From: an uncultured Chromatiales bacterium
Lineage (GTDB): Bacteria > Pseudomonadota > Gammaproteobacteria > Poriferisulfidales > Poriferisulfidaceae
Reading direction: 5' to 3'
Assembly: GCA_964526195.1 (NCBI GenBank)
Contig: CAZGIH010000020.1
Location: 12,803-76,802, forward strand
Length of the DNA stretch: 64,000 bases
Shown: piece after piece, positions 1,970 to 62,460 of the stretch
How positions within the stretch are numbered: position 1 is the first letter of the stretch
How the letters are laid out: every line of letters starts with the position of its first letter
The notes under the pieces: generated by a model
The model's database searches: none
What the model saw: the letters and a program-made list of their open reading frames with translations, nothing else
Told to the model about the DNA's origin: nothing
Made by a program: the position numbers and the translations under genes

Positions 1970-3100
1970 ATGGCCAAACGCGACTACTATGAAGTACTAG
2001 GCGTCGACCGAAAGGTCAGCGAGGCGGACCTCAAGAAGGCGTATCGCCGGTTGGCCATGAAGCACCACCCGGACCGCAACAAGGACGACGCTGACGCCGA
2101 CCGCAAGTTCCGGGAGATCCAGGAAGCCTACGGCGTCCTGTCCGATTCCGAGAAACGTTCCCTGTACGACCGCTTCGGGCACGATGCGGTCGGGGCTTCG
2201 GGTGCATCCGGTGCCGCAGGGGCGGCCAGCGGGTTCGAAGATATATTCGGTGACATGTTCGGCGACATGTTCGGTCGGGCGAGCCGGGGCCGCACGGAAG
2301 TACGCGGCGCAGACCTGGCCTACCGGGCTGAGTTGGATCTGGAAGAAGCGGTATTCGGGGTAACCCGCGAGATCGATGTCGAGATGGCGATGCAGTGCGA
2401 AACCTGCGATGGCACCGGTTGCGCACCCGGCACCCAGCCGGAAACCTGTTCGACTTGCCAGGGCCGCGGCGAGGTGGTGGTCCAACAGGGCTTCTTCACC
2501 CTGCGCCAGACCTGCCCGAAATGCCATGGCGAGGGCCGCACCATTCGCGTGCCCTGCCACGATTGCCATGGTGCGGGACGCGTGCGCAAGACGCGCACGC
2601 TGCGAGTCAAGATCCCGGCGGGCGTGGATCAGGGAGACCGGGTTCGCCTGACCGGAGAAGGCGAGGCCGGCATGCGCGGTGGTGCGCCGGGGGATCTGTA
2701 CGTAGAGGTGAGGGTGCGCAAGCACCGCCTGTTCCGCCGCAAGGGGAACGACCTGCATTGCGATGTGCCGATTAGCTTTGCCATGGCGGCGTTGGGCGGG
2801 GCTGTCGAGATCCCGACGCTGGACGGCCACGTGAACCTGAAGATCCCTCCGGAGACGCAAACGGGCGTGTCGCTGCGCCTGCGCGGCAAGGGTGTTAGTT
2901 CGGTCCGCAACTCGTCTCCGGGCGACATGATCTGTACCATGGTCGTCGAGACCCCAGTCAGTCTGAATGCGGGACAGCGCAGGCTTCTCGAAGAATTGGA
3001 AGAGTCCCTGACCGGAAATGAGGTACACTCCCCCCGTGCCGATTCCTGGCTGAAGCGGGGGCGGCATTTCGTGGACAACCTGAAGTCTTGGTTGCACTAG
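1970..3100 (+). CDS. dnaJ: Co-chaperone DnaJ
   Basis: N-terminal J-domain (YYEVLGV...HPDRN), G/F-rich linker ([10 protein letters not shown]), four CxxCxG zinc-finger repeats; sits directly after dnaK. Confidence 0.97.
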
Positions 3101-3116: not shown

Positions 3117-3932
3117 ATGGGAAAAGTTCGAGTAGGGATTGCTGGTGTTACCGGCCGAATGGGCAGCACCCTGGTTCGGGTGGCGCTGGAGACTCCCGGC
3201 ATTGCGCTGGGCGCGGCCAGCTCGCACAGCCAAGACGAGTTAGTGGTTGGGCGGGACGCCGGGCTGTTCTCGGGAGGGGAAGAGTCGGGTGTGGCGATTT
3301 CCGGGTCGCTCGAATACTGCCATGGAGATTTCGACGTTGCGATCGACTTCACGTGCCCCGAATACACGGTGGAACTGGCCCGGTTCTGTGTGGAACAGGA
3401 AAAGGGCATGGTGATCGGTACGACTGCGCACAGCAAAGAGCAGTTGGAAGCCGTTGCCGAGGCGGCGAAAAAAATCCCGATCGTGATGGCGCCGAACATG
3501 AGTATTGGCGTCAACCTGATGTTGAACCTGATCACCGAGGCCGCCAAGTCGCTTGGCGACGAGACGGATACGGACATCGTGGAATTGCATCATCGCAAGA
3601 AGCACGACGCCCCGTCCGGTACCGCGCTGGCTTTGGGCAAGGCGGTGGCGAAAGGAAGGAAACAGGCATTCCCGGACTGTGCTTCGTTCAGGGCCCTGTC
3701 GACGGGCGACGAAAGAGATGCGGACAAGATCCAATATCACATCATGCGGATGGCGAACGTTGTCGGCGAGCACCGGGTGGTTTTCGCCTGGAACAACGAA
3801 CGGTTGGAGTTAGTGCACCGGGCGGGCAGCCGGGAGATTTTCGCTGGCGGTGCCTTGCGCGCGGCGGCTTGGGTTTCTGGCCGGTCACCCGGGCTGTATT
3901 CGATGCAGGACGTACTCGCGATGTTAGACTAA
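3117..3932 (+). CDS. dapB: 4-hydroxy-tetrahydrodipicolinate reductase
   Basis: 271 aa; N-terminal Rossmann motif [11 protein letters not shown]; conserved dnaKJ-dapB neighbourhood. Confidence 0.92.
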
Positions 3933-3966
3933 CCCGCCACGGCTGCTAGCCGCCGGGACGTCATGC

Positions 3967-4053
3967 GGAGAGGTGGCAGAGTGGTCGAATGCGGCGGTCT
4001 TGAAAACCGTTGAACCGAAAGGTTCCGGGGGTTCGAATCCCTCCCTCTCCGCC
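3967..4053 (+). tRNA. tRNA-Ser (anticodon UGA)
   Basis: The acceptor stem GGAGAGG pairs with CCTCTCC, followed by discriminator G and CCA. The anticodon stem GCGGT pairs with ACCGT around the loop CTTGAAA (anticodon TGA). A long variable arm is characteristic of type II (Ser) tRNAs, and the T-loop is GTTCGAATC. Confidence 0.9.
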
Positions 4054-4078
4054 ACACGGACGTTGATGGACTACTCGC

Positions 4079-5638
4079 ATGGGGTTTTGGGAACTCGTCG
4101 TCGGCTTGTCGGAAAACCTGTTCTACGCATGGGGCTGGCCTTGGCTCGGCCTGCCAGGCGGAATCCTCCTTGTTCTCGGTCTGCTGCGGGCTCCGCGGGT
4201 GCTCGGCCTGCTGATGCTGATGCTGTCCGCCGCGACCGTGCTGGTGGTCTTGGCTCCGCACGTGACGGGGGCGGGCCGTCCAGACTGGCATGTCTTGCTG
4301 TTCGTCGGGGAATTCCTGCTTGGAGCAGCGGTGGCCGCCTTCGCGGCACGCGGGACGACCAACCTGCTTGAGCGTTGGCGCGGGCGCTGGATGCAGCGCA
4401 GCCCGCTGGCTCGCGATGCGCGGACCGATATCCGCACGGTCGGGGATTTGCTGCCGAAAGCTCGTGATGCCTATGATCCGCTGCCTCATTGCGAGTCGCT
4501 GGAGCAAATCTTCTTGGGCCTGGGTCCGGACGGCGATGCCGTTCATGTTGATCAAGCCTTATGGCGGAACTCCCATGTCGACATTGTCGGCATGACCGGC
4601 AGCGGCAAAGGGATTTTGGCCGGAGTACTGCTGACCCAAGCTGTGCGGCAGGGTGAGGCGGTGGTAGTGGTCGATCCCAAGGACGACGAATACGCACCGC
4701 GCGTGATGGCTCGTGCCGCCCGAGAGGCGGGCGTGCCGTTCTACCGCTTGGATCTCATGGACGAGACGGCGCAGTGGAATCCTCTTCGGGGCAAGACGGC
4801 CGACGAGATCGAAGAACTCCTGGTGGCGAGTCTGGGTTTGGGAGAGCGGGGCACCGAGGCGGATTTCTATCGCCTCAACGACCGCCGTGCCGCGCGGGAA
4901 TTCGCGCAACTGTACGACGATGAACCTTTGCCGATCCTGCTGGAGACGTTCCGCGGCCAGCCCGCAGCCCGCAAGGCGACGAAATTCATCGACGATATGG
5001 AAGAAATTGTCGCGACTCCTTCAGCGCGAGCCGAGGAAGGATTGGATATTGCCGGGGCGATTTCCGAAGGTGCGGTGATTTACGTGCGTGGTTCCGTGCG
5101 CCACTCTCGCATCCTCAAGCTGCAGAAGATGTTCGTGCTGTCGGTGATTCAGTACTGTGAACGGCGCGCTCGCGAGGAAGCCCGTCAGGTTTGCTTATTC
5201 TTGGATGAATTCCGCTATCTGGTCAGCGCACCCGTGCTGGAAGCGCTTGCTTCCATCCGCGACAAGCGAGCACACTTGGTTCTGGCGCATCAGACGGTGA
5301 ACGATTTGCGGAATGTCCCCGACGACCTAGATCCGGAGCAGGTGGTGTCCTCAGTGACTGAAAACTGTGGCCTGAAATTCTCCTACCGGGTCAACGATCC
5401 GGACACCGCGTTATGGTTGGCGCGCATGAGCGGAAATATCCTGGTCGACGACGAGGTGCGAAGCCTTGAGACCAATACGGTGCTCGCTGAACGGGAGCGA
5501 GATTTTCGCAGTTTGCGCCAGTCGGAACGCTATCTAGTGGATACTAATATGCTGCAATCCCTGCCGCCGCGTTGCGCGGTCAACTACGGCAACGGGCTCG
5601 CCCGATTTGTGTTTACGTCTCCGGTACCAGTTGAGTAG
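4079..5638 (+). CDS. Membrane-anchored P-loop ATPase resembling TraD/VirD4-type (type IV coupling protein-like) family; function unknown
   Basis: Two or three N-terminal hydrophobic helices; Walker A-like GMTGSGKG (the Ser/Thr after Lys is replaced by Gly); Walker B-like LFLDEF; LVLAHQTVNDL resembles the conserved Q-motif of TraG/TrwB coupling proteins. The start codon is uncertain. The gene lies 25 nt downstream of tRNA-Ser. Confidence 0.45.
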   Translation: MGFWELVVGLSENLFYAWGWPWLGLPGGILLVLGLLRAPRVLGLLMLMLSAATVLVVLAPHVTGAGRPDWHVLLFVGEFLLGAAVAAFAARGTTNLLERWRGRWMQRSPLARDARTDIRTVGDLLPKARDAYDPLPHCESLEQIFLGLGPDGDAVHVDQALWRNSHVDIVGMTGSGKGILAGVLLTQAVRQGEAVVVVDPKDDEYAPRVMARAAREAGVPFYRLDLMDETAQWNPLRGKTADEIEELLVASLGLGERGTEADFYRLNDRRAAREFAQLYDDEPLPILLETFRGQPAARKATKFIDDMEEIVATPSARAEEGLDIAGAISEGAVIYVRGSVRHSRILKLQKMFVLSVIQYCERRAREEARQVCLFLDEFRYLVSAPVLEALASIRDKRAHLVLAHQTVNDLRNVPDDLDPEQVVSSVTENCGLKFSYRVNDPDTALWLARMSGNILVDDEVRSLETNTVLAERERDFRSLRQSERYLVDTNMLQSLPPRCAVNYGNGLARFVFTSPVPVE

Positions 5639-5654
5639 GGTGTAACAGGTGCTG

Positions 5655-5942
5655 TCAGGTTGCAGGTGAAAGTCGCTTAGTGAGTTGGCTTGCTTTTTTC
5701 ATAGCTTGAGCCAGATCGCAGGATGCCTGAATTCGATACCAGGTTTCGGCCCCGCCTCCGAACACCTTGTCAAGGCGAATAGCCATCTCGGGGGAGATTC
5801 TTGAGCGGCAGTTCACTATGTTCGACAGTTGCTTACGGCTAACTCCAAGCTTTTGGGCAGCTTCTGTTACGCTCAGACCTAAGGGCTCCAGACAATCATG
5901 GCGCACGGATAGCCCCGGGTGGGGTGGACTTTTCATGGGCAT
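5655..5942 (-). CDS. HigA-family (XRE HTH) antitoxin-like protein, apparently orphan
   Basis: [65 protein letters not shown] matches the HigA antidote HTH pattern. The start was chosen at Met20 of the track ORF (5655..5999). No RelE/HigB-like ORF lies upstream on the same strand. Confidence 0.7.
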
Positions 5943-5986
5943 GCTGTAATCTTCCTGCTGGAATGTTGGACGGGTTAGAAGGAAAT

Positions 5987-6127
5987 CATGGCCAAACATA
6001 GTAAACCACTTACGCCTGAACAGATCGCGGAGATTGAAGACGAGGATATCGATTTCAGTGATATTCCCGAACTGGATGAATCTTTTTGGGAAGAAGCAGA
6101 AATCGTTGAGCCAGACCTAGCCGAATA
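5987..6127 (+). CDS. Small ORF (46 aa) with BrnA/DUF4415-like antitoxin signature; absent from the ORF track
   Basis: Reads [51 protein letters not shown] lies 4-5 nt upstream of the ATG. The [11 protein letters not shown] pattern is typical of DUF4415 proteins. Coordinates +/-1. Confidence 0.4.
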
Positions 6128-6239
6128 GACTCTCTTTACTTGACGTTTTTTCGCTATTTGACCCCTCTGCTGTAAAATAGTCTCCCGGCATAATTTTTAC
6201 GGCTCGCCAAGCCCAAAGCCGGACTTTCAGGAGACATTC

Positions 6240-7376
6240 TTGGCCAAACGCGCGTTGCTCGCTCTCGAAAACGGCGCGTTGTTTTTCGGAGATTCTATTG
6301 GGGCGGACGCCACCGCCGTTGGCGAAGTCGTTTTCAATACCGCCATCACCGGCTACCAGGAAATCCTGACCGACCCGTCGTATTGCCGGCAACTGATTAC
6401 GCTGACGCATCCGCACATCGGGAACGTCGGCACCAATGACGAGGACAACGAATCAAGCCCCCGGGTGCATGCCGCCGGGCTGATTGTCCGCGACGTGCCC
6501 GCGCGCATGAGCAACTGGCGCGGGGAACGGCCTCTGGGTGATTTTCTCGAAAGCCATGAGCTCCCCGGCATTGCCGGCATCGACACGCGCCGTCTAACCC
6601 GAATTCTGCGCGATCAAGGCGCCCAGTCGGGCTGCCTCACGACGGACGTCTCTGACTCGGATCGGGCGGTCGAGCAGGCTCGCGCATTTGCTGGGCTTGC
6701 GGGGATGGATTTAGCGCGGGAAGTCACCACAGAGACGGCCTACGACTGGGACGAGGGGGCTTGGGAAACAGAGTCCAACGAGTTGCCGCCCGTGCAATAC
6801 CGAGTGGTGGCCTACGACTACGGAATCAAACAAAATATCCTGCGTCTGCTGCGCGAACGGGGCTGCGCGGTCACGGTGGTGCCAGCCATGACTCCGGCCT
6901 CGGAAGTGCGCGCCCAGGATCCGGACGGTGTCTTCCTGTCCAACGGGCCGGGAGACCCTGAGCCATGCACCTACGCCCAAGAGGCGATTCAGGAACTGCT
7001 CGACGCCAAAATCCCGATGTTCGGCATATGTTTGGGCTGCCAACTGCTGGGTCTGGCCAGTGGCGCGCGCACGGTCAAGATGAAGACCGGTCACCATGGC
7101 GCCAACCACCCGGTGCTGGAACTGGACACGGGGCGGGTCCTGATCAGCAGCCAGAACCACGGGTTCGCGGTGGACGAGGGGTCACTGCCGGATCATTTGC
7201 GCCTCACTCATCGCTCGCTGTTCGACGGTACCGTACAAGGGATCAGTCACACCGAGGCGCCGGCGTTTGCCTTCCAAGGGCACCCGGAGGCCAGTCCCGG
7301 ACCGCATGACGTGGCCAGCCTGTTCGATCATTTCACCGACCTGATGCAGCAGCATCGCGCTGGGCAGTCCGGCTGA
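6240..7376 (+). CDS. carA: Carbamoyl-phosphate synthase small (glutaminase) subunit
   Basis: 378 aa; [19 protein letters not shown] and the class-I amidotransferase Cys motif GICLGCQ. Apparent TTG start with AGGAGA 7 nt upstream. Confidence 0.95.
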
Positions 7377-7381
7377 GCACC

Positions 7382-10300
7382 ATGCCTAAGCGGACCAACA
7401 TCGAAAGCATCCTCGTGATCGGGGCCGGGCCGATCGTGATCGGCCAGGCCTGTGAGTTCGACTACTCCGGGGCGCAGGCCTGCAAGGCGCTGCGCGAGGA
7501 AGGCTACCGCGTCATCCTGGTTAACTCCAATCCCGCCACCATCATGACCGACCCGCAGATGGCACAGTCCATCTACATTGAGCCGGTCGAATGGCAGACC
7601 CTGTCGCGTATCATCGAGCGCGAGAAGCCGGACGTGCTGCTGCCGACCATGGGTGGGCAAACCGCCCTGAACTGCGCGCTGGACCTGCATCGCGAAGGGG
7701 TGCTGGAGGCTCACGGCGTGGAATTGATCGGTGCGTCGCTGGAGGCCATCGCCATGGCCGAGGACCGGCAACTGTTCCGCGAGGCTATGGGGGAGATCGG
7801 ACTGGAGCAGGCCCGGTCCCAAGTGGTGCGCAGCGTAGAGGAAGCGCTGGATTTCCAGCCCCAGATCGGTTATCCCGTGATTGTGCGGCCTTCGTTCACT
7901 TTGGGTGGAACCGGGGGAGGCATAGCCCGGGACGAGGAGGAATTACGGCGCGTCGTCGCGCACGGCTTGGACCTGTCACCCGCCCATGAGGTTTTGTTGG
8001 AGGAGTCGCTTCTGGGCTGGAAGGAATTCGAGATGGAGGTGGTGCGCGACGCCAATGACAACTGCATCATCGTCTGCTCGATCGAGAACCTCGATCCAAT
8101 GGGGGTGCACACCGGGGACTCGATCACGGTAGCACCGGCACAGACCCTGACGGATAAGGAGTACCAGCGAATGCGCGATGCTTCCATTGCGGTGTTGCGC
8201 AAGATCGGTGTGGATACCGGAGGCTCCAACGTGCAGTTCGCGGTTCATCCGGACAACGGGCGGCTGGTGATCATCGAAATGAACCCGCGTGTTTCGCGCT
8301 CCTCGGCACTCGCCTCCAAGGCCACCGGCTTTCCGATCGCCAAAGTGGCGGCCCGCTTGGCCATTGGCTACACGCTGGACGAACTCCGCAACGACATCAC
8401 GGACGGTGCGACGCCATGCTCGTTCGAGCCGACCCTCGACTACATTGTGACGAAGATTCCTCGATTCACGTTCGAGAAATTCCCGCAGGCCGAGCCGCTC
8501 CTGACCACCCAGATGAAGTCGGTCGGGGAGGCGATGGCGATTGGGCGCACTTTCCAGGAATCCCTGCAGAAGGCGTTGCGTAGCTTGGAGACCGGGCAAT
8601 GCGGGCTGGATCCGGTCGGACCGATGGACCGGGATGAGCGGAAGCATCGGCTGATGTATCCGGATCCGCATCGGCTGAGGCACGTTGCCGACGCCTTGCG
8701 CGAGGGTTGGAGCCCGGAAGAGATCTACGAGTTGACGGGCATCGATCCGTGGTTTGTCGCGGAGATTGCGGACCTGGTGGCGCAGGAGCAGTCGCTGTCG
8801 GGCCGGGCTCTGGAGGAATTGTCGAAAGACGAGATGTTTGCTCTCAAGCGTGCCGGCTTTTCGGACCAGCGCTTGGGGCAACTGCTTGAGACGACCGAAG
8901 AAGCGGTGCGCGCGCATCGCCATGAGCAGGGGTTGCGCCCGGTGTACAAGCGGGTCGACACCTGCGCAGCGGAATTCCCGACTTCCACGGCCTACCTCTA
9001 TTCGACCTACGAAGAGGAATGCGAGGCGCGGCCGACGCAGGCGCGTAAGGTGGTGGTGCTCGGTGGCGGGCCAAACCGGATCGGGCAGGGGATTGAATTC
9101 GACTACTGTTGCGTGCATGCCGCCCAGGGTGCGCGCGAACTGGGTTTCGAGACCCTCATGATTAACTGCAATCCCGAGACGGTCTCCACCGACTACGACA
9201 CTTCCGATCGCCTGTATTTCGAGCCGCTGGTGCTGGAGGACGTGCTGGAAATCCTGCATGTCGAGCAGCCGTATGGCGTGATCGTCCAGTTCGGGGGGCA
9301 GACGCCGTTGAAACTCGCCCAGGGACTGGCCCGTGCGGGAGTTCCGATCCTGGGCACCTCGCCAGACGCGATCGACGCGTCCGAAGACCGGGAGCGTTTC
9401 ACCGGGGTACTGAAGAGCCTGGGGCTGCACCAGCCGCCGGGAGGCACGGCCCGCGACCGCGACGGGGCATTGAACCTGGCGCGCCGGCTAGGCTACCCCT
9501 TGGTGGTGCGGCCATCCTACGTACTGGGCGGACGGGCCATGGAAATCGTATTCGATGAGGCGGAGCTTGAACAATACATCGAGGATGCGGTGCAGGTGTC
9601 CGACCAGACCCCGGTATTGCTTGACCGTTATCTGGAAGACGCGGTGGAGGTAGATGTCGACGTCGTGTGCGATGGCGTGGACGTGCTGATTGGCGGCATC
9701 ATGCAGCACATCGAGCAGGCGGGCATCCATTCCGGGGATTCGGCCTGTTCGCTGCCGGCCTATTCGATTGAAGAGCCGGTGATCGCAGCCCTGCGCAGCC
9801 AGGCCGAGGCGCTGGCACGCGCACTTGAAGTAGTGGGACTGATGAATGTCCAGTTCGCCGTGCAGGGGGAGGCGATCTACGTGATCGAGGCCAACCCCCG
9901 TGCTTCGCGGACAGTGCCGTTCGTCTCCAAGGTGACCGGCCGGTCACTGGCGCGGATCGCGACCGCATGCATGCTGGGCCGGTCCTTGCGTGACCAAGGT
10001 TGTGAGCAAGAAGTGCAACTGGAATATTTCTCGGTCAAGGAGGCAGTGTTCCCCTTCATCAAGTTCCCGGGCGTCGATCCGATTCTGGGCCCAGAGATGA
10101 AGTCGACCGGCGAGGTCATGGGCGTGGGAGCCCGCTTCGAGGAAGCGTTCGCCAAGTCGCAGCGCGCCGCCGGGGTGAACATCCCGACCAGTGGGTGCGC
10201 CCTGATCAGCGTGCGGGACCCGGACAAGTCCCGAAGCGTCGAATTGGCGCGTGACCTGATCGAAGCAGGATTCGAACTGGTGGCAACCCACGGAACGGCG

Positions 10301-10633: not shown

Positions 10634-11110
10634 ATGAGCAAAGTGCCAATGACCGTGCGGGGGGCCACCCTGCTGCGCGAAGAACTTGACCGTCTCAAGC
10701 GGGTAGAACGCCCGGCCGTGATCCAGGCGATCGCCGAGGCGCGTGCGCATGGAGACCTGCGCGAGAATTTCGAGTACAAGGCGGCGCGGGATCAGCAGGG
10801 ATTCGTGGAAGGGCGCATCAAGGAAATCGAATCCAAGTTGTCGCACGCACAGGTTATTGATGTCTCCGAACTTCAGATCAACGGCAAGGTAGTGTTCGGC
10901 ACCACGGTGGAACTGGTGGACATGGAATCCGGCGAGCACGTGTGCTACCAGATCGTCGGCGAGGACGAGGCGGATCTCGAGACGGATCGGATTTCGGTCC
11001 ACTCGCCCATTGCCCGGGCACTGATCGGTTGCCTGGAGGGCGACGAGGTTTCGGTTGAAACCCCTGGCGGGAAACGAGTGTTCGAGATCATGGCGGTGCG
11101 CGGCGAATAG
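10634..11110 (+). CDS. greA: Transcription elongation factor GreA
   Basis: 158 aa; conserved carAB-greA order; N-terminal coiled-coil and C-terminal FKBP-like domains. Confidence 0.94.
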
Positions 11111-11240
11111 CAGATTTCGCCACAAAGCAAATTCACGGTGCCGTCTGGCGCCGAAGCCCGCGTCAGTCCATTTGAGAAAAGCGCGGAACCTAATTTTCTA
11201 TAATTGTTGACAGCGGCGAAGCCTGGGACGCCGCCTTGTT

Positions 11241-14051
11241 ATGTCTCAAAAAACTGCCACCCCGGCTTTCTACACCCCTTGGCATGGGCGTTTTCCCCTT
11301 GTTGCGTTGGCGCTGATCCTGGCCGCTTCCGGGGTCTTGGCCGAAGATGTTCCGGAACCGTCCGAGGAACTTGAGCAGGTGACGGTGACCGGCTCCCGCA
11401 TCAAGCGGACACAGCAACAGGACGTTGCTACGCCGCTGACCAGCTACGATTTCGAAGAACTTCGGAATTTGGGTGTCGATGATCCCCGGGATCTGATGCA
11501 GTTGTTGCCCAGCAATGTCGGTGCCCAGAACAACGCCGATTCCCTGTCGCAGAACTATACGGTTGGTACCTCCAACATCAACCTTCGCGGGTTGGGTGTT
11601 TCCTCGACCTTGGTGCTGCTCAATGGCCGTCGTCAGGTGACCTCGGCCATCCCTACCATTGATGGGTCCAGTTTCGTGGACTTGTCGGCACTGGTGCCCA
11701 CGCTCGCGTTGGAACAAGTCGAAATCCTGAAAGATGGCGCGGCCGCGGTCTACGGTTCGGATGCCATTGCCGGAGTCGCCAATTTCGTCACCCGCTCCGA
11801 CTATGAAGGCTTCGAGGTATCCGTCGGACACCGTGAACGTACCAATAATGGATCCCAGTCGGACGATCGCGTGGAAGTCGTATACGGCCGTAACTTTCTG
11901 GAATCCGGCAACCTGCTACTTGCGCTGAGTTATCTGGATCGGACCCAGTTGGTGATGGGCGAGGTCGACTGGAGGGCTCCGGCATGGAGCTCCGCGGCCA
12001 ACCCCGGCAATTTCATCGTGCTGGCCGACACGGTGCTGGCAGATGGCACTGAACTAGCCACCGGCACGACAACGGCCGCACCTCACTGCACTCAGCACGT
12101 TCCGCCTGCCAGCTACATCCCGCCACAGGCACTTGCAGCCAACCCCAGTACGCACAGCGTCTGCCGATTCGACTTCGCTCCGCAAATTACGGTCGGTCCG
12201 GAAGAAGAACGCATCCAGGCCTTCGCCCAGCTCGGCTTCGACCTTGGCGAGCAGACTCGCTTGACGGCAGAATTAGGCTACACGCACAACAATATCCGTC
12301 GCACCATCTCTCCCAGCCTTCCCGCTATTAGCCCTAGGTTGCCTACTATTCCGGCCGCGCATCCAGGCAACCCGTTTCGGGACAGCAACGACGATCCGGT
12401 GGCATTGCGCTACATCGGCCGCATCTATGGCGTCGATGAACCGTCCGAAACCAACGACTTCAACAGCGAGACGAAGCGAATCGCGCTGATCGCCGAGGGC
12501 GACGTAACCGACCACTTGTCATGGGAAATGTCGTTCCTTCATGCCCGTAGCGACATCGACTGGCGAATTCCCGATACCCTGCATCGCCACCTGCAGAATG
12601 CCATGGGTGCCAACGAGGACGATACCGGGTTGCTTGGTGTCGGTCCGGATTGCCCGGGCCATCGCGACGACCTCCAGGATGGCGATGTCTGCCTGTTCTA
12701 CAACCCGTTCAGCGTCGCCAACAAGGTGTTGGCCATGACTTGGGATGGCGGCACGTTTGGCGGCACACGCTCTGGCACGACTGCCGAACAGGCCTTCATG
12801 CGCAACTACCTGCTTGCGGATGCGATGGCCGCGACCGAATCCGAGCTGGATGTCCTTGAGGCGGTCTTGACCGGTGATGTCCTGTCCTTGTCGGATGGCA
12901 GCCTGATCGGCTATGCCTTCGGCGTCCAATACCGCGACGAATCCATTCGTGGCGACTTCAACCAGTTATTCAACGATTTCGAATTCTCATTTGCCGGCGG
13001 CAACCCGGACTATTCCGGCTCGCGGGATGCCATTGCCGTCTTCGGCGAAGTGTTGTTGCCCCTGAGTCCGGACTTAGAAGCGACGATTGGCGTGCGCCAC
13101 GAGGATTATGGTGGCAGCATCGGCAGCACCACCGACCCGAAACTGTCCCTGCTCTGGACGCCAGCGGATATCCTCTCGCTACGTGCCTCGGCAAGCACTT
13201 CATTCCGCGCCCCCTCATTGCATCAGACGCAGGGCGTGCAGGCGACCTACTCCGACGTCCAGGAAAACGAGCGCCAATTCTTCGTGCCCAACCTGACTTA
13301 CGGCAACAGAAACCTGAAGCCAGAGACCGCTACCTCGTTGAATTTGGGCGGTTCCGTGGCCATGGAGAATTGGGAACTGAATCTGGATTACTGGAGCTTC
13401 CGTTTCGAGGATGCCCTCGCTCGCGAGAACCCGCAGGAAGTCGTCGATACCGATGCGGAGCGCGTTGCTGCCGGCGAAGAAAGCCGCGTTGTTCGCGCCG
13501 CCGGTGGCACCATCGCCCGCGTCAACACCCGCTACATCAACACCGACGAGATCCGAACCTCCGGCCTCGATTTCTCGATTCGGGGACAATTTCAAACGCC
13601 CTCTGGCCGTTTCCTCACCGGCCTGCATGCGACGCACATCCTCGAATACGACATTACCCGTCCGGGCGGGCAAAAGATCGACGGTGCCGGCTACCTGAAC
13701 TTCGCCAACATCGGCAGCCCCACGCCGGCATGGCGCGGCACCCTGAATCTGACCTGGCAGCGCAGCAATCATCAGGCGGTCCTGACGCTCAACTACACGG
13801 ACGACTACCGGTACCGCCGCACGGCCACAGTAATCGACCGAATCGACTCCTTTACGACTGTTGACCTGCAGTACCGTCTGGAACTCGCCGGGCTTATCGG
13901 CCCGGACGCCGACACCTCCCTGACGGCTGGAGTCCTCAATGTTACGGATGAAGATCCACCCTCCGTGAACATCAGCGGTGGCTACGACCCGCGTACTGCC
14001 GACCCGCGTGGGCGCCGGGCGTACGTGTTGCTCAGTTCCCGCTTCGAATAA
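11241..14051 (+). CDS. TonB-dependent outer-membrane receptor
   Basis: 936 aa; signal peptide; plug-domain motifs (QVTVTGSR, INLRGLG); C-terminal beta-barrel ending in an aromatic-rich terminus. Substrate unknown. Confidence 0.85.
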   Translation: MSQKTATPAFYTPWHGRFPLVALALILAASGVLAEDVPEPSEELEQVTVTGSRIKRTQQQDVATPLTSYDFEELRNLGVDDPRDLMQLLPSNVGAQNNADSLSQNYTVGTSNINLRGLGVSSTLVLLNGRRQVTSAIPTIDGSSFVDLSALVPTLALEQVEILKDGAAAVYGSDAIAGVANFVTRSDYEGFEVSVGHRERTNNGSQSDDRVEVVYGRNFLESGNLLLALSYLDRTQLVMGEVDWRAPAWSSAANPGNFIVLADTVLADGTELATGTTTAAPHCTQHVPPASYIPPQALAANPSTHSVCRFDFAPQITVGPEEERIQAFAQLGFDLGEQTRLTAELGYTHNNIRRTISPSLPAISPRLPTIPAAHPGNPFRDSNDDPVALRYIGRIYGVDEPSETNDFNSETKRIALIAEGDVTDHLSWEMSFLHARSDIDWRIPDTLHRHLQNAMGANEDDTGLLGVGPDCPGHRDDLQDGDVCLFYNPFSVANKVLAMTWDGGTFGGTRSGTTAEQAFMRNYLLADAMAATESELDVLEAVLTGDVLSLSDGSLIGYAFGVQYRDESIRGDFNQLFNDFEFSFAGGNPDYSGSRDAIAVFGEVLLPLSPDLEATIGVRHEDYGGSIGSTTDPKLSLLWTPADILSLRASASTSFRAPSLHQTQGVQATYSDVQENERQFFVPNLTYGNRNLKPETATSLNLGGSVAMENWELNLDYWSFRFEDALARENPQEVVDTDAERVAAGEESRVVRAAGGTIARVNTRYINTDEIRTSGLDFSIRGQFQTPSGRFLTGLHATHILEYDITRPGGQKIDGAGYLNFANIGSPTPAWRGTLNLTWQRSNHQAVLTLNYTDDYRYRRTATVIDRIDSFTTVDLQYRLELAGLIGPDADTSLTAGVLNVTDEDPPSVNISGGYDPRTADPRGRRAYVLLSSRFE

Positions 14052-14490: not shown

Positions 14491-14961
14491 ATGTTGATGA
14501 AGGCCGATGGCACGACTCAAACATTAAAGTCCCTGATCGCACCCCAAATCGAGAGAATGGGCTACGAGCTGTGGGGGCTTGTATGCCAGTTGGGCGTGCG
14601 CCAAGGTCGAGTGTGCGTGTACATCGACCACCCGGACGGCATCAGCCACGCCGACTGCGCGGCCGTCAGCGACCAGGTGAGCGGGCTGCTGGACGTGGCG
14701 GACCCGATCCGGACCGCCTACCGGCTGGAAGTATCCTCGCCGGGGCTGGACCGGCTGCTGCTGTGCCCGGAGCATTTCCAGCGCTACCGGGATTCGCAGG
14801 TGTCCATACGCCTGCGCTGGCCGCTGGAAGGACGCCGTCGCCTGTTCGGAACGATCGAGGCGGCGAACGGCAATGCCGTGGAAATCCGGGAAGACGAACA
14901 GACGTTCGTGGTTCCCTACAACGTAATCGCCCAGGCGCGATTGCATTATGAGGAGGAATGA
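14491..14961 (+). CDS. rimP: Ribosome maturation factor RimP
   Basis: 156 aa; conserved position before nusA; RBS AGGAGGA. Confidence 0.92.
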   Translation: MLMKADGTTQTLKSLIAPQIERMGYELWGLVCQLGVRQGRVCVYIDHPDGISHADCAAVSDQVSGLLDVADPIRTAYRLEVSSPGLDRLLLCPEHFQRYRDSQVSIRLRWPLEGRRRLFGTIEAANGNAVEIREDEQTFVVPYNVIAQARLHYEEE

Positions 14962-14967
14962 CTGGCG

Positions 14968-16455
14968 ATGAGTGATGCCGGTATAGACATTCTGGCCGTG
15001 GTCGAGACCGTCTCTACGGAGAAGGGGATCGGGCGCGAAATTATTTTCGATGCGCTGGAAGTGGCTCTGGCGGCGGCGACCCGCAAGAACCTGGGCGGCG
15101 ATGCCGACGTGCGCATTGCCATCGACCGGGATACGGGCGCCTACGACACGTTCCAGCGTTGGCTGGTGATGGCCGACGACGACCCCGAGTTCCAGTCGCC
15201 CGACGGGCAGATCCTGTTGAGCACTGCGCAGCAGCGGGACCCGAACCTTGAAATCGGCGACTACATCGAGGAGCCGATCGATTCTGTGGACATTGGGCGG
15301 ATTTCCGCGCACACCGCCAAACAGGTCATCGTGCAGAAAGTGCGCGAGGCTGAACGGGCGCAGATCGCGGAAGCTTACGAAGACAAGGTTGGCGACCTGC
15401 TGATCGGCATCGTCAAGCGGGTTGAGCATGCTGGCGCTTACATCGACCTGGGCGGGAACACGGAAGGGTTCATTCCGCGCGAGGACACCATCCAGCGCGA
15501 AATCATCCGTACCGGCGACCGGCTTCGCGCCTACCTGCGCGAAGTGCGCCAGGAAACACGCGGCCCGCAGTTGATCCTGTCCCGGACAGTGCCGGAGTTC
15601 CTGATTCAACTGTTCCACCTGGAAGTCCCGGAGATCGAGCAGGGGCTGATCGAGATCGTGGGTGCTGCGCGGGACCCTGGAATCCGCGCCAAAATCGCGG
15701 TGCGCACCAACGACTCCCGGCTGGATCCAGTGGGCGCCTGCGTGGGTATGCGCGGTTCCCGGGTACAGGCAGTCTCCAACGAGTTGTCCGGCGAACGCAT
15801 CGACATCATTACCTGGCACGAGAATTCGGCGCAGTACGTGATCAACGCCATGTCGCTCCCTTCGGTCGACGAGATCGTCCAGGACGAAGAGAACAAGGTC
15901 ATGGATATTGCGGTCGAGGAGGACCGCCTGTCGCAGGCGATCGGCCGGAATGGGCAGAACGTCCGCCTGGCGAGCCAGTTGACCGGCTGGACGCTGAACG
16001 TCATGACGGCGCAGGAGCTGCGCGAAAAGAGTGATCAGGAGCAGCGGGTGCTCGAAGAAAAATTCCAGGAAGAGCTGGATGTCGACGAGCATATTGCAGG
16101 AATCCTGGTGGAAAACGGCTTCCGCGAAGTCCAGGAACTTGCGTACGTGCCGGATCAAGACCTGCTGCTGATCGACGAATTCAACGAGCAGGTAGTGGCC
16201 GAACTGAAGGAACGGGCACAGGACAGCTTGGCACAGAGAGCGGAGATGGCAGAGGATGAGGATATCCTCAATGTGGAGGGAATGGATCCCGACTTGGCCA
16301 TGCAGTTGGCCTTGCACGGCATTACCACGCGGCGGCAACTGGCGGAACTGGCCCTGGACGAGTTACCCGAGATCGAGTCACTGGACGAAGAGCGGGCAGG
16401 TACCCTGATCATGAAGGCGCGCGAAAACCTGGTAATGCAGTTGCCGGAGGCCTGA
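14968..16455 (+). CDS. nusA: Transcription termination/antitermination factor NusA
   Basis: 495 aa; N-terminal domain, S1 and KH domains, acidic C-terminal repeats; rimP-nusA-infB synteny. Confidence 0.97.
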   Translation: MSDAGIDILAVVETVSTEKGIGREIIFDALEVALAAATRKNLGGDADVRIAIDRDTGAYDTFQRWLVMADDDPEFQSPDGQILLSTAQQRDPNLEIGDYIEEPIDSVDIGRISAHTAKQVIVQKVREAERAQIAEAYEDKVGDLLIGIVKRVEHAGAYIDLGGNTEGFIPREDTIQREIIRTGDRLRAYLREVRQETRGPQLILSRTVPEFLIQLFHLEVPEIEQGLIEIVGAARDPGIRAKIAVRTNDSRLDPVGACVGMRGSRVQAVSNELSGERIDIITWHENSAQYVINAMSLPSVDEIVQDEENKVMDIAVEEDRLSQAIGRNGQNVRLASQLTGWTLNVMTAQELREKSDQEQRVLEEKFQEELDVDEHIAGILVENGFREVQELAYVPDQDLLLIDEFNEQVVAELKERAQDSLAQRAEMAEDEDILNVEGMDPDLAMQLALHGITTRRQLAELALDELPEIESLDEERAGTLIMKARENLVMQLPEA

Positions 16456-35111: not shown

Positions 35112-35968
35112 GTCGGGCCCTGGAAGTGGAGCAACAGCAGCCAGAACCCTGAACTGGCCAGCAATAACCCGGTTATCGTTCGGAATAGCCGCGCAGGGCT
35201 TGGAAGGGCCTTTTCGACGATCACGAAAAGCGCGATAGCCGCGACCCACAGCATGTTCATCATGCCGACGGCGAACAGGACCAGCATCAGCGCCCAGCAG
35301 CACCCGATGCAATACAGTCCGTGTTCAAAAGACATCTGCAGGGCGCCAGCCCGGCCGTCTTTCCAGCGGGCAAGCAGGAACTGCATGGGTGTTCGGCACA
35401 GGGTGAGGCAGACATCTTTCCATGGCGTCCACTGGTACAGGCCCGCCACGATCAGCAAAATGCCGCTGAACAACTGGCTTCGACTGTCCATCATGGGGTC
35501 GAGCAGCCCCCATTCGTGCAGGGGCCACTGCACGACCGAGATCACTGCGGAAAACGCGGCCCAAGAGGCGAGATAACCGACCAGAAAGATCATCCAGGGG
35601 ACGATTTTCAAGGTCTGCCGGCTCCGGTTCCGTTGTACGACCCGGTACATCCGCAGCATCGGCACGGCACTGGGCGTCATCATCGCGACCATCATGATCG
35701 ACCACATGGCGAACAGCATCCAGAAGTCGTATCCGCTCCAGCCGCCGACTCCGGCGGGCGGAGGCATCCACGCGATAGAGGGCCCGCCCCGCATCATGTC
35801 GCGCATCATCCATTCCATGTACAGCATCCAGCCCCACCCGCTGGCGGTGACGGCGATGACGGCGCCGATGAGGGTCCAGCGTTCAGCCGTCGGCAGGGGC
35901 GCGAATTCAGGAGTGGAGGCGGTGGCAGGCATGAGCGAAGCTCCCGCGGCCATTTTAACAGGTGGCAT
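35108..35968 (-). CDS. DUF2182-family polytopic membrane protein (predicted metal-binding)
   Basis: Multiple TM helices; HGLYCIGCCW motif; start codon ambiguous. Confidence 0.6.
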   Translation of the reverse strand: MPPVKMAAGASLMPATASTPEFAPLPTAERWTLIGAVIAVTASGWGWMLYMEWMMRDMMRGGPSIAWMPPPAGVGGWSGYDFWMLFAMWSIMMVAMMTPSAVPMLRMYRVVQRNRSRQTLKIVPWMIFLVGYLASWAAFSAVISVVQWPLHEWGLLDPMMDSRSQLFSGILLIVAGLYQWTPWKDVCLTLCRTPMQFLLARWKDGRAGALQMSFEHGLYCIGCCWALMLVLFAVGMMNMLWVAAIALFVIVEKALPSPARLFRTITGLLLASSGFWLLLLHFQGPT

Positions 35969-35997
35969 ATGTTGGAAGATGGGGATATAGTGGCCTA

Positions 35998-36963
35998 ATG
36001 AAAGCGGTAAATCGAGACAAGCCGGACCAATGGAAAGAAGACATTATCCGGTCAGTCGACATGTACAACAAGTGGTTTATCAGATTTGCGCCAAAAGCGT
36101 ATCGGGATGTTCGAGAGCAGACAGCCGAGGATGTCAAAAAGATGTTAAAAGCGACGGGCAATTTCAGAAAAATTGATGTAGCATTGCTCAAGGCATTTCC
36201 TGCTGTGTTGCCGACACTTCGGATGACCACTTCTCCACCGCTTGCAATAGATCGCTTGGTAGGACTCTCGGGCGCTTCAGCCAACCTTGTCAAAGTGATG
36301 GAAAAACAAGGCAAGCTTCCCTCTCGGATGTCACCGAGGGAATTGGATGCCAACCTTAGGAAAATCAGCAAAACGATCCAGAAAATGATTGATCCGGACA
36401 TTTTTGGCTGGTTGAAGAACGACAGAAAACCATCTCGACAGGACTTGTACCGGGCCGCGACAATTGTGGCTGACCGGTTATGCGGTGCTGTTGCAAACCC
36501 GATTATTCGCAATGCTCAGGAAAGAAGACAGCTTGCTACCATCGGGAAGTGGCTAAAGAATCGTGGCTATTTGAAGATTTCACCAGGAGAGGGAGCAAAA
36601 TATGATGAAATGCAGCCGGGAACATATTCGTTCCGACTGAATGTGCCAGCCGAGCAGGATCAAACTGGTAAATCAGTTAATATTCCTATGGATGTTGCCG
36701 TGATGCCTAAAAATGCGAAAGTGAGGAATTTGCCGCTTCTCATAGAGGCAAAATCTGCGGGTGACTTTACAAATGTCAACAAGCGCCGAAAGGAAGAAGC
36801 CACAAAAATGAGTCAATTGCGGCGAACCTATGGCAACAACGTGCGGTTTATTTTGTTTCTATGTGGATATTTCGACAGTGGCTATCTCGGCTATGAAGCA
36901 GCAGAAGGTATCGACTGGGTGTGGGAGCACCGTGTCGATGATCTCGAAAAATTTGGGATTTAG
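35998..36963 (+). CDS. Putative type II restriction endonuclease (PD-(D/E)xK), partner of the downstream methyltransferase
   Basis: IPMDVAVMPKNAKVRNLPLLIEAK gives a D...EAK nuclease motif. Its TAG stop abuts the methyltransferase ATG. About 47% GC against about 65% for the host. An alternative GTG start lies at 35962. Confidence 0.55.
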   Translation: MKAVNRDKPDQWKEDIIRSVDMYNKWFIRFAPKAYRDVREQTAEDVKKMLKATGNFRKIDVALLKAFPAVLPTLRMTTSPPLAIDRLVGLSGASANLVKVMEKQGKLPSRMSPRELDANLRKISKTIQKMIDPDIFGWLKNDRKPSRQDLYRAATIVADRLCGAVANPIIRNAQERRQLATIGKWLKNRGYLKISPGEGAKYDEMQPGTYSFRLNVPAEQDQTGKSVNIPMDVAVMPKNAKVRNLPLLIEAKSAGDFTNVNKRRKEEATKMSQLRRTYGNNVRFILFLCGYFDSGYLGYEAAEGIDWVWEHRVDDLEKFGI

Positions 36964-38550
36964 ATGGCTAGAAGTGAAATTGCGACGCTGGAGAAGCATC
37001 GTTTGATGCTTCAGGGGCAACTGGACTCAAAAAAGCATCAAGTTGAACGGAATCGGATGGGGCAATTCGCCACGCCTCCAGAATTGGCAGTGGACATTCT
37101 CCGTTATGCTGAAACCCATAGCGGGATCAACGAAAGAGTCCGTTTCCTTGACCCAAGCTTGGGAACCGGGTCGTTTTATTCAGCTTTGCTCAAAGTGTTT
37201 CCACAAAACCGCATTGATTCTGCTGTAGGCTACGAAATCGATTCCCATTATGGAATTCCTGCGGCAAATTTGTGGGAAAAGACAGGCTTGGATGTCCGTT
37301 TGAGTGATTTTACGCGGGCTGAAGCGCCACCAGATTCTGAAAAGTTTAACCTGCTTGTTTGTAACCCACCTTACGTTCGGCACCATCATATTGACAGTGG
37401 AGAAAAACAGCGCCTGAAGGCCTGTTTGCAGAAAGCGTGCAGCATGCGGCTCAGTGGATTGGCCGGATTGTACTGTTATTTTCTTGGGTTAAGCCATAAG
37501 TGGCTGGCCGAGGGAGGGCTTGCGGGCTGGTTGGTGCCAAGCGAATTTATGGATGTGAATTATGGTGCTGCAGTAAGGAATTACCTGCTAAATAACGTGA
37601 CGCTGCTGCATCTGCATCGATTTGATCCAGACGATGTGCAGTTTGAAGACGCCTTGGTGTCTTCGGTTGTGGTCTGGTTCCGCAAAGCGAAACCGCCGCT
37701 AGAACACCACGTCAGGTTCACATACGGTGGATCGCTTGGCAGCCCAAGGCTGGAACGTTTGGTGCCCGCCGAGACGCTGTGTCGTAGCTCTAAGTGGACA
37801 GGCTATCCGGCAAAAGAGGACGGTGATAAAGCAAATGTGCCAGTTTTGGGTGATTTCTTCAGCATTAAGCGGGGACTGGTGACCGGGGGCAACCGGTATT
37901 TCATCTTGACACTTGAGGAAATCAAGTACCGTGGATTACCTCGAGAAGCATTTCGGCCCATATTGCCGAGCCCGCGTTATTTGCGAGAGAACGAAGTAGT
38001 AGCCGACGGGGATGGAAACCCGGTGCTGGGCCGTCGTTTATTCTTGCTTGATTGCCGACTGGGAGAGGCGCAGATAAGGAAGAAATATCCAGCCTTGTGG
38101 AAATATCTTGAAGAAGGGGAAGCACTGGGTATAGCCAAACGCTACCTCTGTCGGCATCGGACACCTTGGTATACACAGGAAGAACGGCCGCCAGCGCCAT
38201 TCGTATGCACTTACCTTGGAAGAAAGGGAACAAAAAACGGGCGGCCGTTTCGCTTCATACTGAACCACTCTCGGGCGACTGCCGCAAATGTCTACCTCAT
38301 GCTCTACCCTAAAGGACCGATTGCCCGAGCCTTAGAGGAAGATCCGGACTTGAAAAAGAAACTCTGGAAGTTTCTCAATGCAATTCGTCCCCAGACAATG
38401 CTGGATGAGGGACGAGTCTATGGTGGGGGGTTGCATAAGCTTGAGCCAAGAGAATTGAGTAATGTACCGGTTGCGGAATTTGCGGAACTATTGCCGGAAC
38501 CAGCACGATTGCAGTCCGAAAAGCAAGGAGAATTATTTGTGGCAGTTTGA
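36964..38550 (+). CDS. Gamma-class N6-adenine DNA methyltransferase (Eco57I/TaqI-like) with C-terminal target-recognition domain
   Basis: 528 aa. Motif I FLDPSLGTGSF precedes motif IV LLVCNPPYVRHH, the gamma-class order. The low-GC composition is shared with the upstream nuclease. Confidence 0.85.
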   Translation: MARSEIATLEKHRLMLQGQLDSKKHQVERNRMGQFATPPELAVDILRYAETHSGINERVRFLDPSLGTGSFYSALLKVFPQNRIDSAVGYEIDSHYGIPAANLWEKTGLDVRLSDFTRAEAPPDSEKFNLLVCNPPYVRHHHIDSGEKQRLKACLQKACSMRLSGLAGLYCYFLGLSHKWLAEGGLAGWLVPSEFMDVNYGAAVRNYLLNNVTLLHLHRFDPDDVQFEDALVSSVVVWFRKAKPPLEHHVRFTYGGSLGSPRLERLVPAETLCRSSKWTGYPAKEDGDKANVPVLGDFFSIKRGLVTGGNRYFILTLEEIKYRGLPREAFRPILPSPRYLRENEVVADGDGNPVLGRRLFLLDCRLGEAQIRKKYPALWKYLEEGEALGIAKRYLCRHRTPWYTQEERPPAPFVCTYLGRKGTKNGRPFRFILNHSRATAANVYLMLYPKGPIARALEEDPDLKKKLWKFLNAIRPQTMLDEGRVYGGGLHKLEPRELSNVPVAEFAELLPEPARLQSEKQGELFVAV

Positions 38551-54349: not shown

Positions 54350-55384
54350 TTACTCAGTTCCCGAATGCTTGGGTTTACGGGCCAAGAAGAAAAACGCCGG
54401 GGTAAAGAGACCGGATTCGCCTCCCGCGACCAGTGCGTCCGCTCCCCTGTTCAGCATTGTGCTGACCATGGTGGAGCCCTTCGGAATGATCCGCAGCGTC
54501 TCCCCGACTCTTAAGGTCAAATTGGTCAGGGCGCGCCCGATGGGCGTGCGAGGAATGCTCGCGAGACTGAGGTCGCGACCCTGCAGGGCGCGATACCAGG
54601 GCATACCCGGATCCGCTTCAGGGGCGAGGTCGCGGGCTTCCAAAAACTCGAACCCGGCCGCACTCAATGCGGGACCGATTTCAGACGTGACGGCGATATC
54701 CGGTAGCCCGTTCCCTTTCTCGATGTCTTTCTTGATCCGAAGGTGCTCGGCATTCTCCGGATCGAAGTCCTCGGTGAGACACCACTCGTAACCCGCGAAG
54801 CAGGCTCCCGGGCACAGGATGCGGAAGACCTCCCGGAACGCTGCGGTCTTGTCCGGCGCATGGGGCATGGACTCGATCGCGATGGCGGCGTCGTAGGAGT
54901 TGTCGTCCTCGGGAATCTGCATGAAGTCGCCGTGGATGAAGCGGCACAACGACTGGATGTCTTGGCTTTGTGCTTCGGCGCGCCTGATCTGGTAGGCGTT
55001 GTTGTTAAGCCCGACGAAACTGGCCCCGGAGTAACGGGCCAGCGTGCGCATTGGTCCGCCGATCCCGCAACCCAAGTCGATAACCTGCATCCCGGGTTTC
55101 AGGGACAGTTGGTCGGCTAGGAAATGCTCGTGCCTGAGCAGCGACTCCTTGAAGCTTTCGCCGCGGAGCCGGGGCGCGAAGTGAAAGGACTGGCCCCAGC
55201 CAAATTCGTAGAAATCGGTCGCTAGGTCGTAGTAGTGATTGACGAGTGTCTGATAGTCCTCTTTCCTGTTCTCCAGGTCGTCGTCGTGGAGCCCGGTGTA
55301 TTGATCGACCGCTTGGGTTACTTCATCCGGAGTGAGGTCCGAAAAAGAACGGGAACTCGATTGCTTGGTGGAAGTGCTGCTCAT
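54350..55384 (-). CDS. Sterol C-24 methyltransferase (ERG6/SMT family), SAM-dependent
   Basis: Start at the internal Met (MSSTSTK...). YYDLATDFYEFGWGQSFHF matches the SMT region-I hallmark (YEYGWG..FHF). SAM motif VIDLGCGIGGP. About 344 aa. Confidence 0.85.
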   Translation of the reverse strand: MSSTSTKQSSSRSFSDLTPDEVTQAVDQYTGLHDDDLENRKEDYQTLVNHYYDLATDFYEFGWGQSFHFAPRLRGESFKESLLRHEHFLADQLSLKPGMQVIDLGCGIGGPMRTLARYSGASFVGLNNNAYQIRRAEAQSQDIQSLCRFIHGDFMQIPEDDNSYDAAIAIESMPHAPDKTAAFREVFRILCPGACFAGYEWCLTEDFDPENAEHLRIKKDIEKGNGLPDIAVTSEIGPALSAAGFEFLEARDLAPEADPGMPWYRALQGRDLSLASIPRTPIGRALTNLTLRVGETLRIIPKGSTMVSTMLNRGADALVAGGESGLFTPAFFFLARKPKHSGTE

Positions 55385-55413
55385 TCGATTATCCTGCCAG
55401 TTCGCGTTCTTCT

Positions 55414-60260: not shown

Positions 60261-60274
60261 GTCGTCAGGTCGCC

Positions 60275-62459: not shown

Positions 62460-62460
62460 T

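Follow-up and report, generated by a model that had tools for sequence, protein, structure and literature searches.

The window analysed here is a stretch of 64,000 nucleotides from an uncultured Chromatiales bacterium (assembly GCA_964526195.1, contig CAZGIH010000020.1, positions 12,803 to 76,802 of the forward strand). Directly behind its tRNA-Ser(UGA) gene lies an open reading frame (ORF) of 519 amino acids, on the plus strand at 4079-5638, which is, as judged from Pfam profiles, an AlphaFold2 model with its fold matches, and the family alignment and tree, a type IV coupling protein (T4CP) of the MobB (CloDF13/MOBC) type. What is new is the state in which it is found: it is an orphan, tail-less and chromosomally fixed derivative of the MobB-type coupling proteins.

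Layout of the locus

At the start of the window, dnaK (38-1939), dnaJ (1970-3100) and dapB (3117-3932) follow one another, and the stop codon of dapB lies 34 nt before the tRNA-Ser(UGA) gene (3967-4054, plus strand, CCA encoded), which is recognised both by ARAGORN (tga) and by Rfam (RF00005, 59.9 bits). The ATG of the 519-residue ORF is the 25th base past the end of the tRNA, so that 24 nt separate the two (4055-4078, plus strand), with a conserved core, ACGTTGATGGA, in the alignment of Porisulfidus loci; the ORF thus sits right behind the tRNA, exactly where an earlier note on this DNA had placed it. Beyond it come a minus-strand antitoxin gene, higA (5655-5942), a 46-residue acidic ORF on the plus strand (5988-6128, conserved among Porisulfidus loci) and, according to the ORF list, carA, carB and greA.

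A scan for promoters and terminators predicted no site resembling either in the stretch from dapB to the ORF, and in an Rfam scan around the locus the tRNA alone scored, two sub-threshold hits being artefacts of overlap with it. Because the spacing is 24 nt and no such signals are predicted, the ORF is probably co-transcribed with tRNA-Ser, and the shared transcript possibly extends back to dnaK, dnaJ and dapB. The tRNA itself is near-identical across 11 aligned Porisulfidus loci, with 3 variable positions. An attR repeat, which the earlier note had proposed to look for, did not turn up: the 25-nt 3′ end of the tRNA, allowing up to 3 mismatches, matches only the tRNA itself, and a repeat search over 3900-6300 gave short, chance-level repeats only.

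Domain architecture and fold of the 519-residue protein

Four Pfam profiles match the protein above their gathering cut-offs: T4SS-DNA_transf (PF02534; 1.5e-14, 54.2 bits against a cut-off of 20.1), TrwB_AAD_bind (PF10412; 1.5e-11, 44.3 bits against 20.5), TraG-D_C (PF12696; 5e-7, 30.1 bits against 22) and DUF87 (8e-7). They bear out the earlier description of a TraD/VirD4-like coupling ATPase. The chain divides into a membrane domain (residues 1-107), a nucleotide-binding domain in two parts (141-240 and 331-519) and, between these, an all-alpha domain (241-330). Three hydrophobic segments (Kyte-Doolittle at least 1.6) lie within residues 20-90, inside the membrane domain, consistent with the N-terminal transmembrane helices noted before, and the AlphaFold2 model places helices there at 3-22, 24-36, 41-62 and 70-107. 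That model, built on a 28-sequence family alignment and having a mean predicted local distance difference test score of 82.4, has a RecA-like core with a helical insertion at residues 241-330.

The catalytic motifs are all in place. Walker A, read from the sequence, is GMTGSGKG (residues 171-178; 4589-4612, plus strand); Walker B is LFLDEF (residues 373-378; 5195-5212, plus strand), with D376 and E377 invariant in the family; and the TraG-like LVLAHQT motif (residues 400-406; 5276-5296, plus strand) carries the invariant H404 and Q405. The last two had been pointed out in the earlier note and are indeed present, as is the GMTGSGKG loop, which the note had called atypical for the glycine that follows the Walker lysine. 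The loop is not atypical, however: GxxGxGKG occurs in 31/31 family members with a recognisable motif, including plasmid-borne copies. Since these plasmid-borne copies are presumably active, the glycine is, by this comparison, a family trait under selection and not a sign of degeneration. The C-terminus, ...FTSPVPVE, has no acidic tail.

Searches of the PDB by sequence were uninformative, phmmer finding no match for the protein and the family profile giving weak P-loop matches only (0.008 for a DUF87 protein, 0.03 for DotL), so a fold search was needed to place it. The best matches were Cag-beta, the VirD4 of H. pylori (8dol), and TrwB of R388 (1e9s and related entries), at E~5e-14 and a TM-score of 0.68 normalised to TrwB, over about 420-460 aligned columns; HerA, DndH-C and VirB4 rank next. 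TrwB (507 residues) also has the overall size and architecture of the window protein. Sequence identity to TrwB and Cag-beta is only 14-17%, and both of these are encoded together with their type IV secretion system (T4SS) and relaxase.

Relationship to CloDF13 MobB

By tblastn, the protein matches the mobB region of CloDF13 with 30% identity over 361 residues (E 4.5e-24). MobB of CloDF13, which has three predicted membrane helices, is the coupling protein that has been characterised for the rare MOBC1 class of mobilizable plasmids, and doubles as a relaxosome accessory protein (PMC7431656). Mobilizable plasmids with a T4CP of their own also encode the MobC relaxase (PMC5704250, PMC7431656). 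The two proteins share an architecture of about three N-terminal membrane helices followed by an ATPase core into which an all-alpha domain is inserted. They differ in length (653 residues in MobB, 519 here) and in Walker A (GKS in MobB, GKG here). Furthermore, the window protein is without an acidic tail, MobC or an element bearing an origin of transfer (oriT) around its gene, and the gene has a fixed place in the chromosome and is passed on vertically within a single genus. In the CloDF13 record (L031, NC_002119.1), positions 6700-9250 contain multiple frameshifts in mobB and mobC, and the annotation fragments both genes; the reference record is typed as non-mobilizable by MOB-suite.

The nearest relatives, at 40-55% identity, are the long forms encoded by MOBC-type integrative mobilizable elements (IMEs) and plasmids (L006-L010, L023-L026, and the plasmids of Klebsiella and Spongiibacter). 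Long forms of about 580 residues at 46-55% identity occur in Methylophaga, Methylotenera, Methylobacillus, Methylococcales and other bacteria, and a translated search of plasmids (PLSDB) returned 1,389 records, 856 of them from Klebsiella and many about 5.5 kb in size. All conserved motifs are held in common with the window protein, including GTxADFYRLxDRxAAR in the all-alpha domain. Unlike the window gene, which stands alone, the long forms belong to a multi-gene module, have an acidic tail and are found at variable positions. Across the library the whole family falls into 358 clusters at 50% identity (E<=1e-30), whereas the short forms make up approximately one, and in a neighbour-joining tree the short forms are monophyletic. 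A phage origin of the T4CP was considered and dropped, the phage collection giving one marginal match.

The ancestral mobB-mobC module

Directly after the T4CP gene, 11/11 long-form loci (L006-L010, L023-L026, L029 and L030) have an ORF of about 245 residues, which overlaps the T4CP gene in the compact module. L029 is a 5.5-kb Klebsiella plasmid and L030 a Spongiibacter plasmid (NZ_CP011478.1) typed MOBC by PLSDB. Even the long-form copies of Nitrospira, at just 31-32% identity to the window protein, have the same ORF next to them. When a profile of this ORF is compared with the mobC region of CloDF13, four colinear fragments match (best E 7.5e-8 and 8.7e-5), and the aligned motif, PD...(A)xE(L/V)ERT(V/I)K, is typical of restriction-endonuclease-like relaxases. 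By this profile match, the long-form family is the mobB-mobC pair. On L029 (NZ_CP065835.1), the pair includes a mobC-like ORF at 3-674, by the start of the record, that is missing from the PLSDB gene table, and the plasmid is typed as non-mobilizable by MOB-suite despite the pair.

The module is ordered as integrase, an opposite-strand ORF of about 441 residues, HTH_17, a winged helix-turn-helix (wHTH) protein of about 265 residues, T4CP (mobB) and mobC. In its full length of about 6 kb it is visible in L009 and L010 only, both with the integrase, which in L009 lies directly after a tRNA-Met; its mobB-mobC core is met again in methylotrophs, in Nitrospira and in other bacteria. The module of L006-L010 and L023-L026 appears to define an undescribed family of MOBC-type IMEs in Proteobacteria and Nitrospira.

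Long and short forms differ clearly at the C-terminus. The IME and plasmid long forms have 45-60 extra residues, acidic in character and ending A(E/Q)xLLDVD, ...NNADF or ...IDFGDE, and CloDF13 MobB, by the primer sequence, ends in ...GDDDFAGLY (PMC7431656). The short forms (519-557 residues) terminate right behind the last conserved beta-strand. In the F plasmid, the C-terminal tail of TraD binds TraM, and the name that Pfam gives to PF12696 reflects this. By analogy, the acidic tail of the long forms is probably a relaxosome docking site.

Conservation and selection

In a homologue scan that took one genome per species and returned carriers only, the T4CP gene was intact in 12 species-level genomes labelled Candidatus Porisulfidus or sharing its synteny. 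Candidatus Porisulfidus comprises sponge-associated, sulfur-oxidising Gammaproteobacteria, whose complete chromosomes measure 1.57-2.02 Mb. The gene starts 24-25 nt past the same tRNA-Ser(UGA) in 10/12 genomes, and in 9 of these 10 the order is dapB, tRNA, T4CP; two metagenome contigs show the identical arrangement of tRNA-Ser and T4CP. All of the 11 tRNA-Ser-linked copies compared are 519 residues long with zero internal stops, and two Porisulfidus copies away from tRNA-Ser have 528 and 533 residues. In one genome (L001, the same locus as L018; 9592-16575) the block of tRNA-Ser and T4CP lies between lepA and mucD, and because about 40 nt of the dapB-tRNA spacer are still attached to it, it must have been moved there by rearrangement; the junction of tRNA, spacer and ATG is conserved even in this relocated block. 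The block is accompanied by Fic, AAA_14/DUF4143 and two helix-turn-helix (HTH) genes, and just beyond lepA are DndB, HNH and ABC-ATPase/DUF4435 genes.

The median pairwise ratio of nonsynonymous to synonymous substitution rates (dN/dS) of the T4CP gene is 0.091, next to 0.103 for dapB, 0.100 for dnaJ and 0.041 for carA, at synonymous divergence (dS) comparable to that of the neighbouring genes and reaching values of 1.6. Broken down by domain, dN/dS is 0.056 in the all-alpha domain, 0.038 and 0.10 in the C-terminal and N-terminal halves of the ATPase core, and 0.24 in the membrane domain. The GC content at third codon positions (GC3) is 0.706, against 0.735-0.80 in host genes, 0.52 in higA and 0.40 in the 46-residue ORF. 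Given the intact frames, the dN/dS of 0.091, the neighbour-like dS and the host-like GC3, the T4CP gene is an old, vertically inherited and functionally constrained resident of the chromosome and no recent cargo. The suggestion that the segment behind the tRNA is island cargo thus does not extend to this gene, present in 12 genomes with a GC3 of 0.706; it holds for the segment 5639-6239, which is variable and has a GC3 of 0.40-0.52. The comparison of the interval from tRNA-Ser to carA in relatives divides it in the same way, the T4CP being conserved as a core gene would be, which goes part of the way towards the refutation that the earlier note had allowed for, and the rest of the interval being variable.

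Another Porisulfidus genome (L021, the same locus as L002) carries a 527-bp direct repeat of the 3′ end of its T4CP gene (11100-11626 and 14889-15412, 95% identity), flanking a 3.3-kb insert that encodes a 423-residue protein and a 290-residue AbiEii-like protein. The arrangement looks like a Campbell-type insertion with the T4CP gene as homology or attachment site. Transfer of the second T4CP fragment from another lineage was considered and rejected: at 95% identity to the genome's own gene, it is a local duplication.

Search for partners of the coupling protein

Neither Pfam searches with 31 large ORFs nor tblastn with MobC, wHTH and other module proteins found an integrase, a relaxase or a T4SS gene in the 64-kb window, in agreement with the absence of transfer genes reported in the earlier note. 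Homologues of MobC, wHTH and integrase are likewise missing within ±10 kb of the 12 Porisulfidus loci and of four other short forms (L027, L028, L032 and L033), which lie on large chromosomal contigs among housekeeping genes. A MobC gene directly downstream, found in 11/11 long-form loci, is thus found in neither the window nor any short-form locus. Nothing in the literature searched on Porisulfidus or orphan T4CPs bears on T4SS content.

When all ORFs within ±4 kb of nine loci were compared with one another, no partner common to the short forms emerged, save for a BRCT protein in two of them. These BRCT-domain proteins (L032, 9366-9983; L033, 11565-12494) have 38% identity to each other (E 5e-42) and adjoin the short-form T4CP, upstream of it in one locus and downstream in the other; they are absent from the remaining short-form loci.

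The variable segment between the T4CP gene and carA

The segment 5639-6239 is a separate insertion hotspot, rich in toxin-antitoxin genes, fast-changing and of atypical GC. In the window it holds an orphan HigA antitoxin of the HTH_3 type (5655-5942, minus strand; the open frame reaches 5999), a true member of TIGR02607 (antidote_HigA; 4e-28, 97 bits against a cut-off of 47.7). Translation of HigA probably begins at the ATG at 5942, since a Shine-Dalgarno-like GGAAGA precedes it and the profile match begins at residue 22. No HigB or remnant of HigB was detected by tblastn in the whole 64-kb window, so the antitoxin without a partner described in the earlier note stands as such. Its orthologues in L012 and L016 belong to a complete higB-higA pair, and the HigB of L016 matches PF05015 at 1.9e-15. 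Unlike in HigBA systems, the window genome has undergone a clean deletion of the toxin gene: in blastn against L012, a scar of 28 nt (5957-5984) takes the place of 391 nt with higB, and the antitoxin is left as a solitary HTH regulator.

In other genomes, the same interval contains an intact higB-higA (L012 and L016), a vapB-vapC (PIN) pair (L020) or three unknown genes (L005 and L013); in L012 there is also an extra GIY-YIG-like ORF, identified by eye only.

The 46-residue acidic ORF is real and conserved, with 85-91% amino-acid identity in L011, L012, L014, L015, L017, L035 and L037. Its earlier label, DUF4415-like, fares less well: there is no Pfam match at E<=1, and among 81 homologues of 33-81 residues PF14384/DUF4415 is found in only 2/81, both of 76-78 residues. 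A relationship of the ORF to the N-terminal part of BrnA/DUF4415 is possible. Its homologues (P0121-P0201) come from metagenome-assembled genomes named Gammaproteobacteria, Gemmatimonadetes and Rhodospirillaceae, which suggests that unrelated bacteria have exchanged the gene, possibly in the microbiomes of sponges.

Other gene clusters in the window

Two further finds lie outside this locus. On the minus strand at 54350-63648 there is an apparently complete bacterial sterol pathway cluster, here in a sponge symbiont. It encodes a Sterol_MT_C methyltransferase, a 1176-residue fusion of squalene epoxidase and oxidosqualene/squalene cyclase, a cytochrome P450, an ERG4/ERG24 sterol reductase, a Rieske/VanA_C oxygenase and a dehydrogenase of the 3-beta-hydroxysteroid type, and bears on the debate over bacterial sterol methyltransferases and sponge sterol biomarkers. 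On the plus strand at 35962-38550 is a type II restriction-modification pair, an XamI-family endonuclease (7e-112) followed by an Eco57I-type methylase.

Discussion

The account that we favour, with moderate confidence, is one of domestication: an orphan MobB-type T4CP that lost its relaxase, integrase and tail was kept under selection and became fixed behind tRNA-Ser(UGA). Its ancestors would have resided in small mobilizable plasmids and in tRNA-integrated mobilizable elements, as part of a translationally coupled mobB-mobC pair of coupling protein and restriction-endonuclease-like relaxase. Relaxase, integrase and acidic C-terminal tail were lost on the branch that led to Candidatus Porisulfidus, where strong purifying selection preserved the membrane anchor along with the ATPase core and its all-alpha substrate-receptor domain. 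Subsequently, the gene became fixed directly behind the tRNA and is probably transcribed with it. The HigB toxin was deleted from the neighbouring hotspot in the window genome, with HigA and the small acidic ORF remaining.

As to function, the protein would be an ATP-driven ring translocase or receptor anchored in the inner membrane. The all-alpha domain is under as much constraint as the ATPase core, and on this ground the protein may well still bind a specific DNA or protein substrate; the ancestral relaxosome would no longer be docked. That the T4CP has been exapted as a chromosomal core gene, expressed from the tRNA transcript and working without any T4SS or relaxase, we put forward as a tentative proposal. 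Stand-alone roles of this kind would include a membrane translocase for DNA or protein, or a gatekeeper against plasmids.

Several points weigh against domestication. The short forms have no common neighbour and hence no pointer to a new function. The sequence covered extends ±10 kb from every homologue and comprises 64 kb in the window genome, and a T4SS, relaxase or oriT elsewhere, unlinked to the gene, could make the protein an ordinary coupling protein. Loss of the tail alone is no proof of lost coupling, since T4CPs of the TrwB type function without a long C-terminal tail. The case for a transcript shared with tRNA-Ser draws solely on the 24-nt spacing and the missing predicted signals, and the L021 and L022 loci of Porisulfidus, together with four other short-form loci, do not adjoin a tRNA-Ser at all. 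Finally, Porisulfidus genomes without the gene would have gone uncounted in a scan that returned carriers.

The most serious alternative, which we regard as possible but rather unlikely, is that the protein is an ordinary working coupling protein, with its T4SS, and possibly a relaxase and oriT, elsewhere on the chromosome, and recruits DNA or effectors to that channel. Some bacteria have their T4CP genes at a distance from the T4SS genes, unlinked to them, and scattered operons are common in reduced symbiont genomes. The strong constraint on the catalytic motifs and the all-alpha domain would be expected of such a protein as well, and MobB-type T4CPs can dock on heterologous T4SSs (PMC7431656). 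Against it stand the absence of a T4SS or relaxase from the window and from the ±10 kb around 16 short-form loci, the loss of the tail and relaxase that all mobile relatives have, and the fact that the relaxase is otherwise always adjacent in the family (11/11 loci).

A second alternative would make the protein a defence or anti-mobile-element device that senses or blocks invading DNA, for instance as a decoy against the coupling proteins of incoming elements. The T4CP gene does border variable toxin-antitoxin and defence regions, with higBA and vapBC at this locus and Fic, AAA_14, DndB, HNH, AbiEii-like and Mrr-ResIII genes nearby in L001 and L002, and its sole PADLOC match is a partial one to mad8 of MADS (E 6e-12). 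MADS is an operon of eight genes, and the preprint describing it gives no domain information on mad8 (bioRxiv 10.1101/2023.03.30.534895); no other mad gene is present here, and nothing resembling the 8-gene operon. The protein has neither an effector domain nor a conserved partner, the genes of the hotspot vary while the T4CP gene stays constant, and its stable vertical inheritance and host-like GC are unlike those of fast-turnover defence genes. We therefore consider a defence role improbable, and for the defence or partition function that the earlier note had offered as an example there is no direct evidence.

The same note had left the choice between a decayed integrative element and a repurposed ATPase, of which the latter is favoured: that the gene is a decaying, functionless remnant of an element integrated at tRNA-Ser, as its adjacency to the tRNA, its descent from a mobile-element family and the loss of integrase, relaxase and HigB might suggest, is very improbable in view of a frame intact in every genome examined, a dN/dS of 0.09 at dS up to 1.6, motifs that are all invariant, GC ameliorated to host level and the lack of an attR repeat.

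Two lessons can be drawn: tight adjacency to a tRNA is insufficient to call a gene island cargo, and a GKG Walker A is normal for this subfamily of T4CPs. A compact mobB-mobC module is defined by the comparison as well, and it is widespread, both among small plasmids (about 1,400 PLSDB records, mostly from Klebsiella) and among elements integrated at tRNA genes. In the usual view, coupling proteins belong obligately to conjugation and type IV secretion machines, and we know of no T4CP with a cellular function independent of a T4SS; if the exaptation is true, this one would be the first. A T4CP that has no relaxase and no docking tail, and is yet conserved as tightly as dapB in genome-reduced symbionts, offers a natural test case for what a coupling protein does alone and for how the genes of mobile elements become domesticated.

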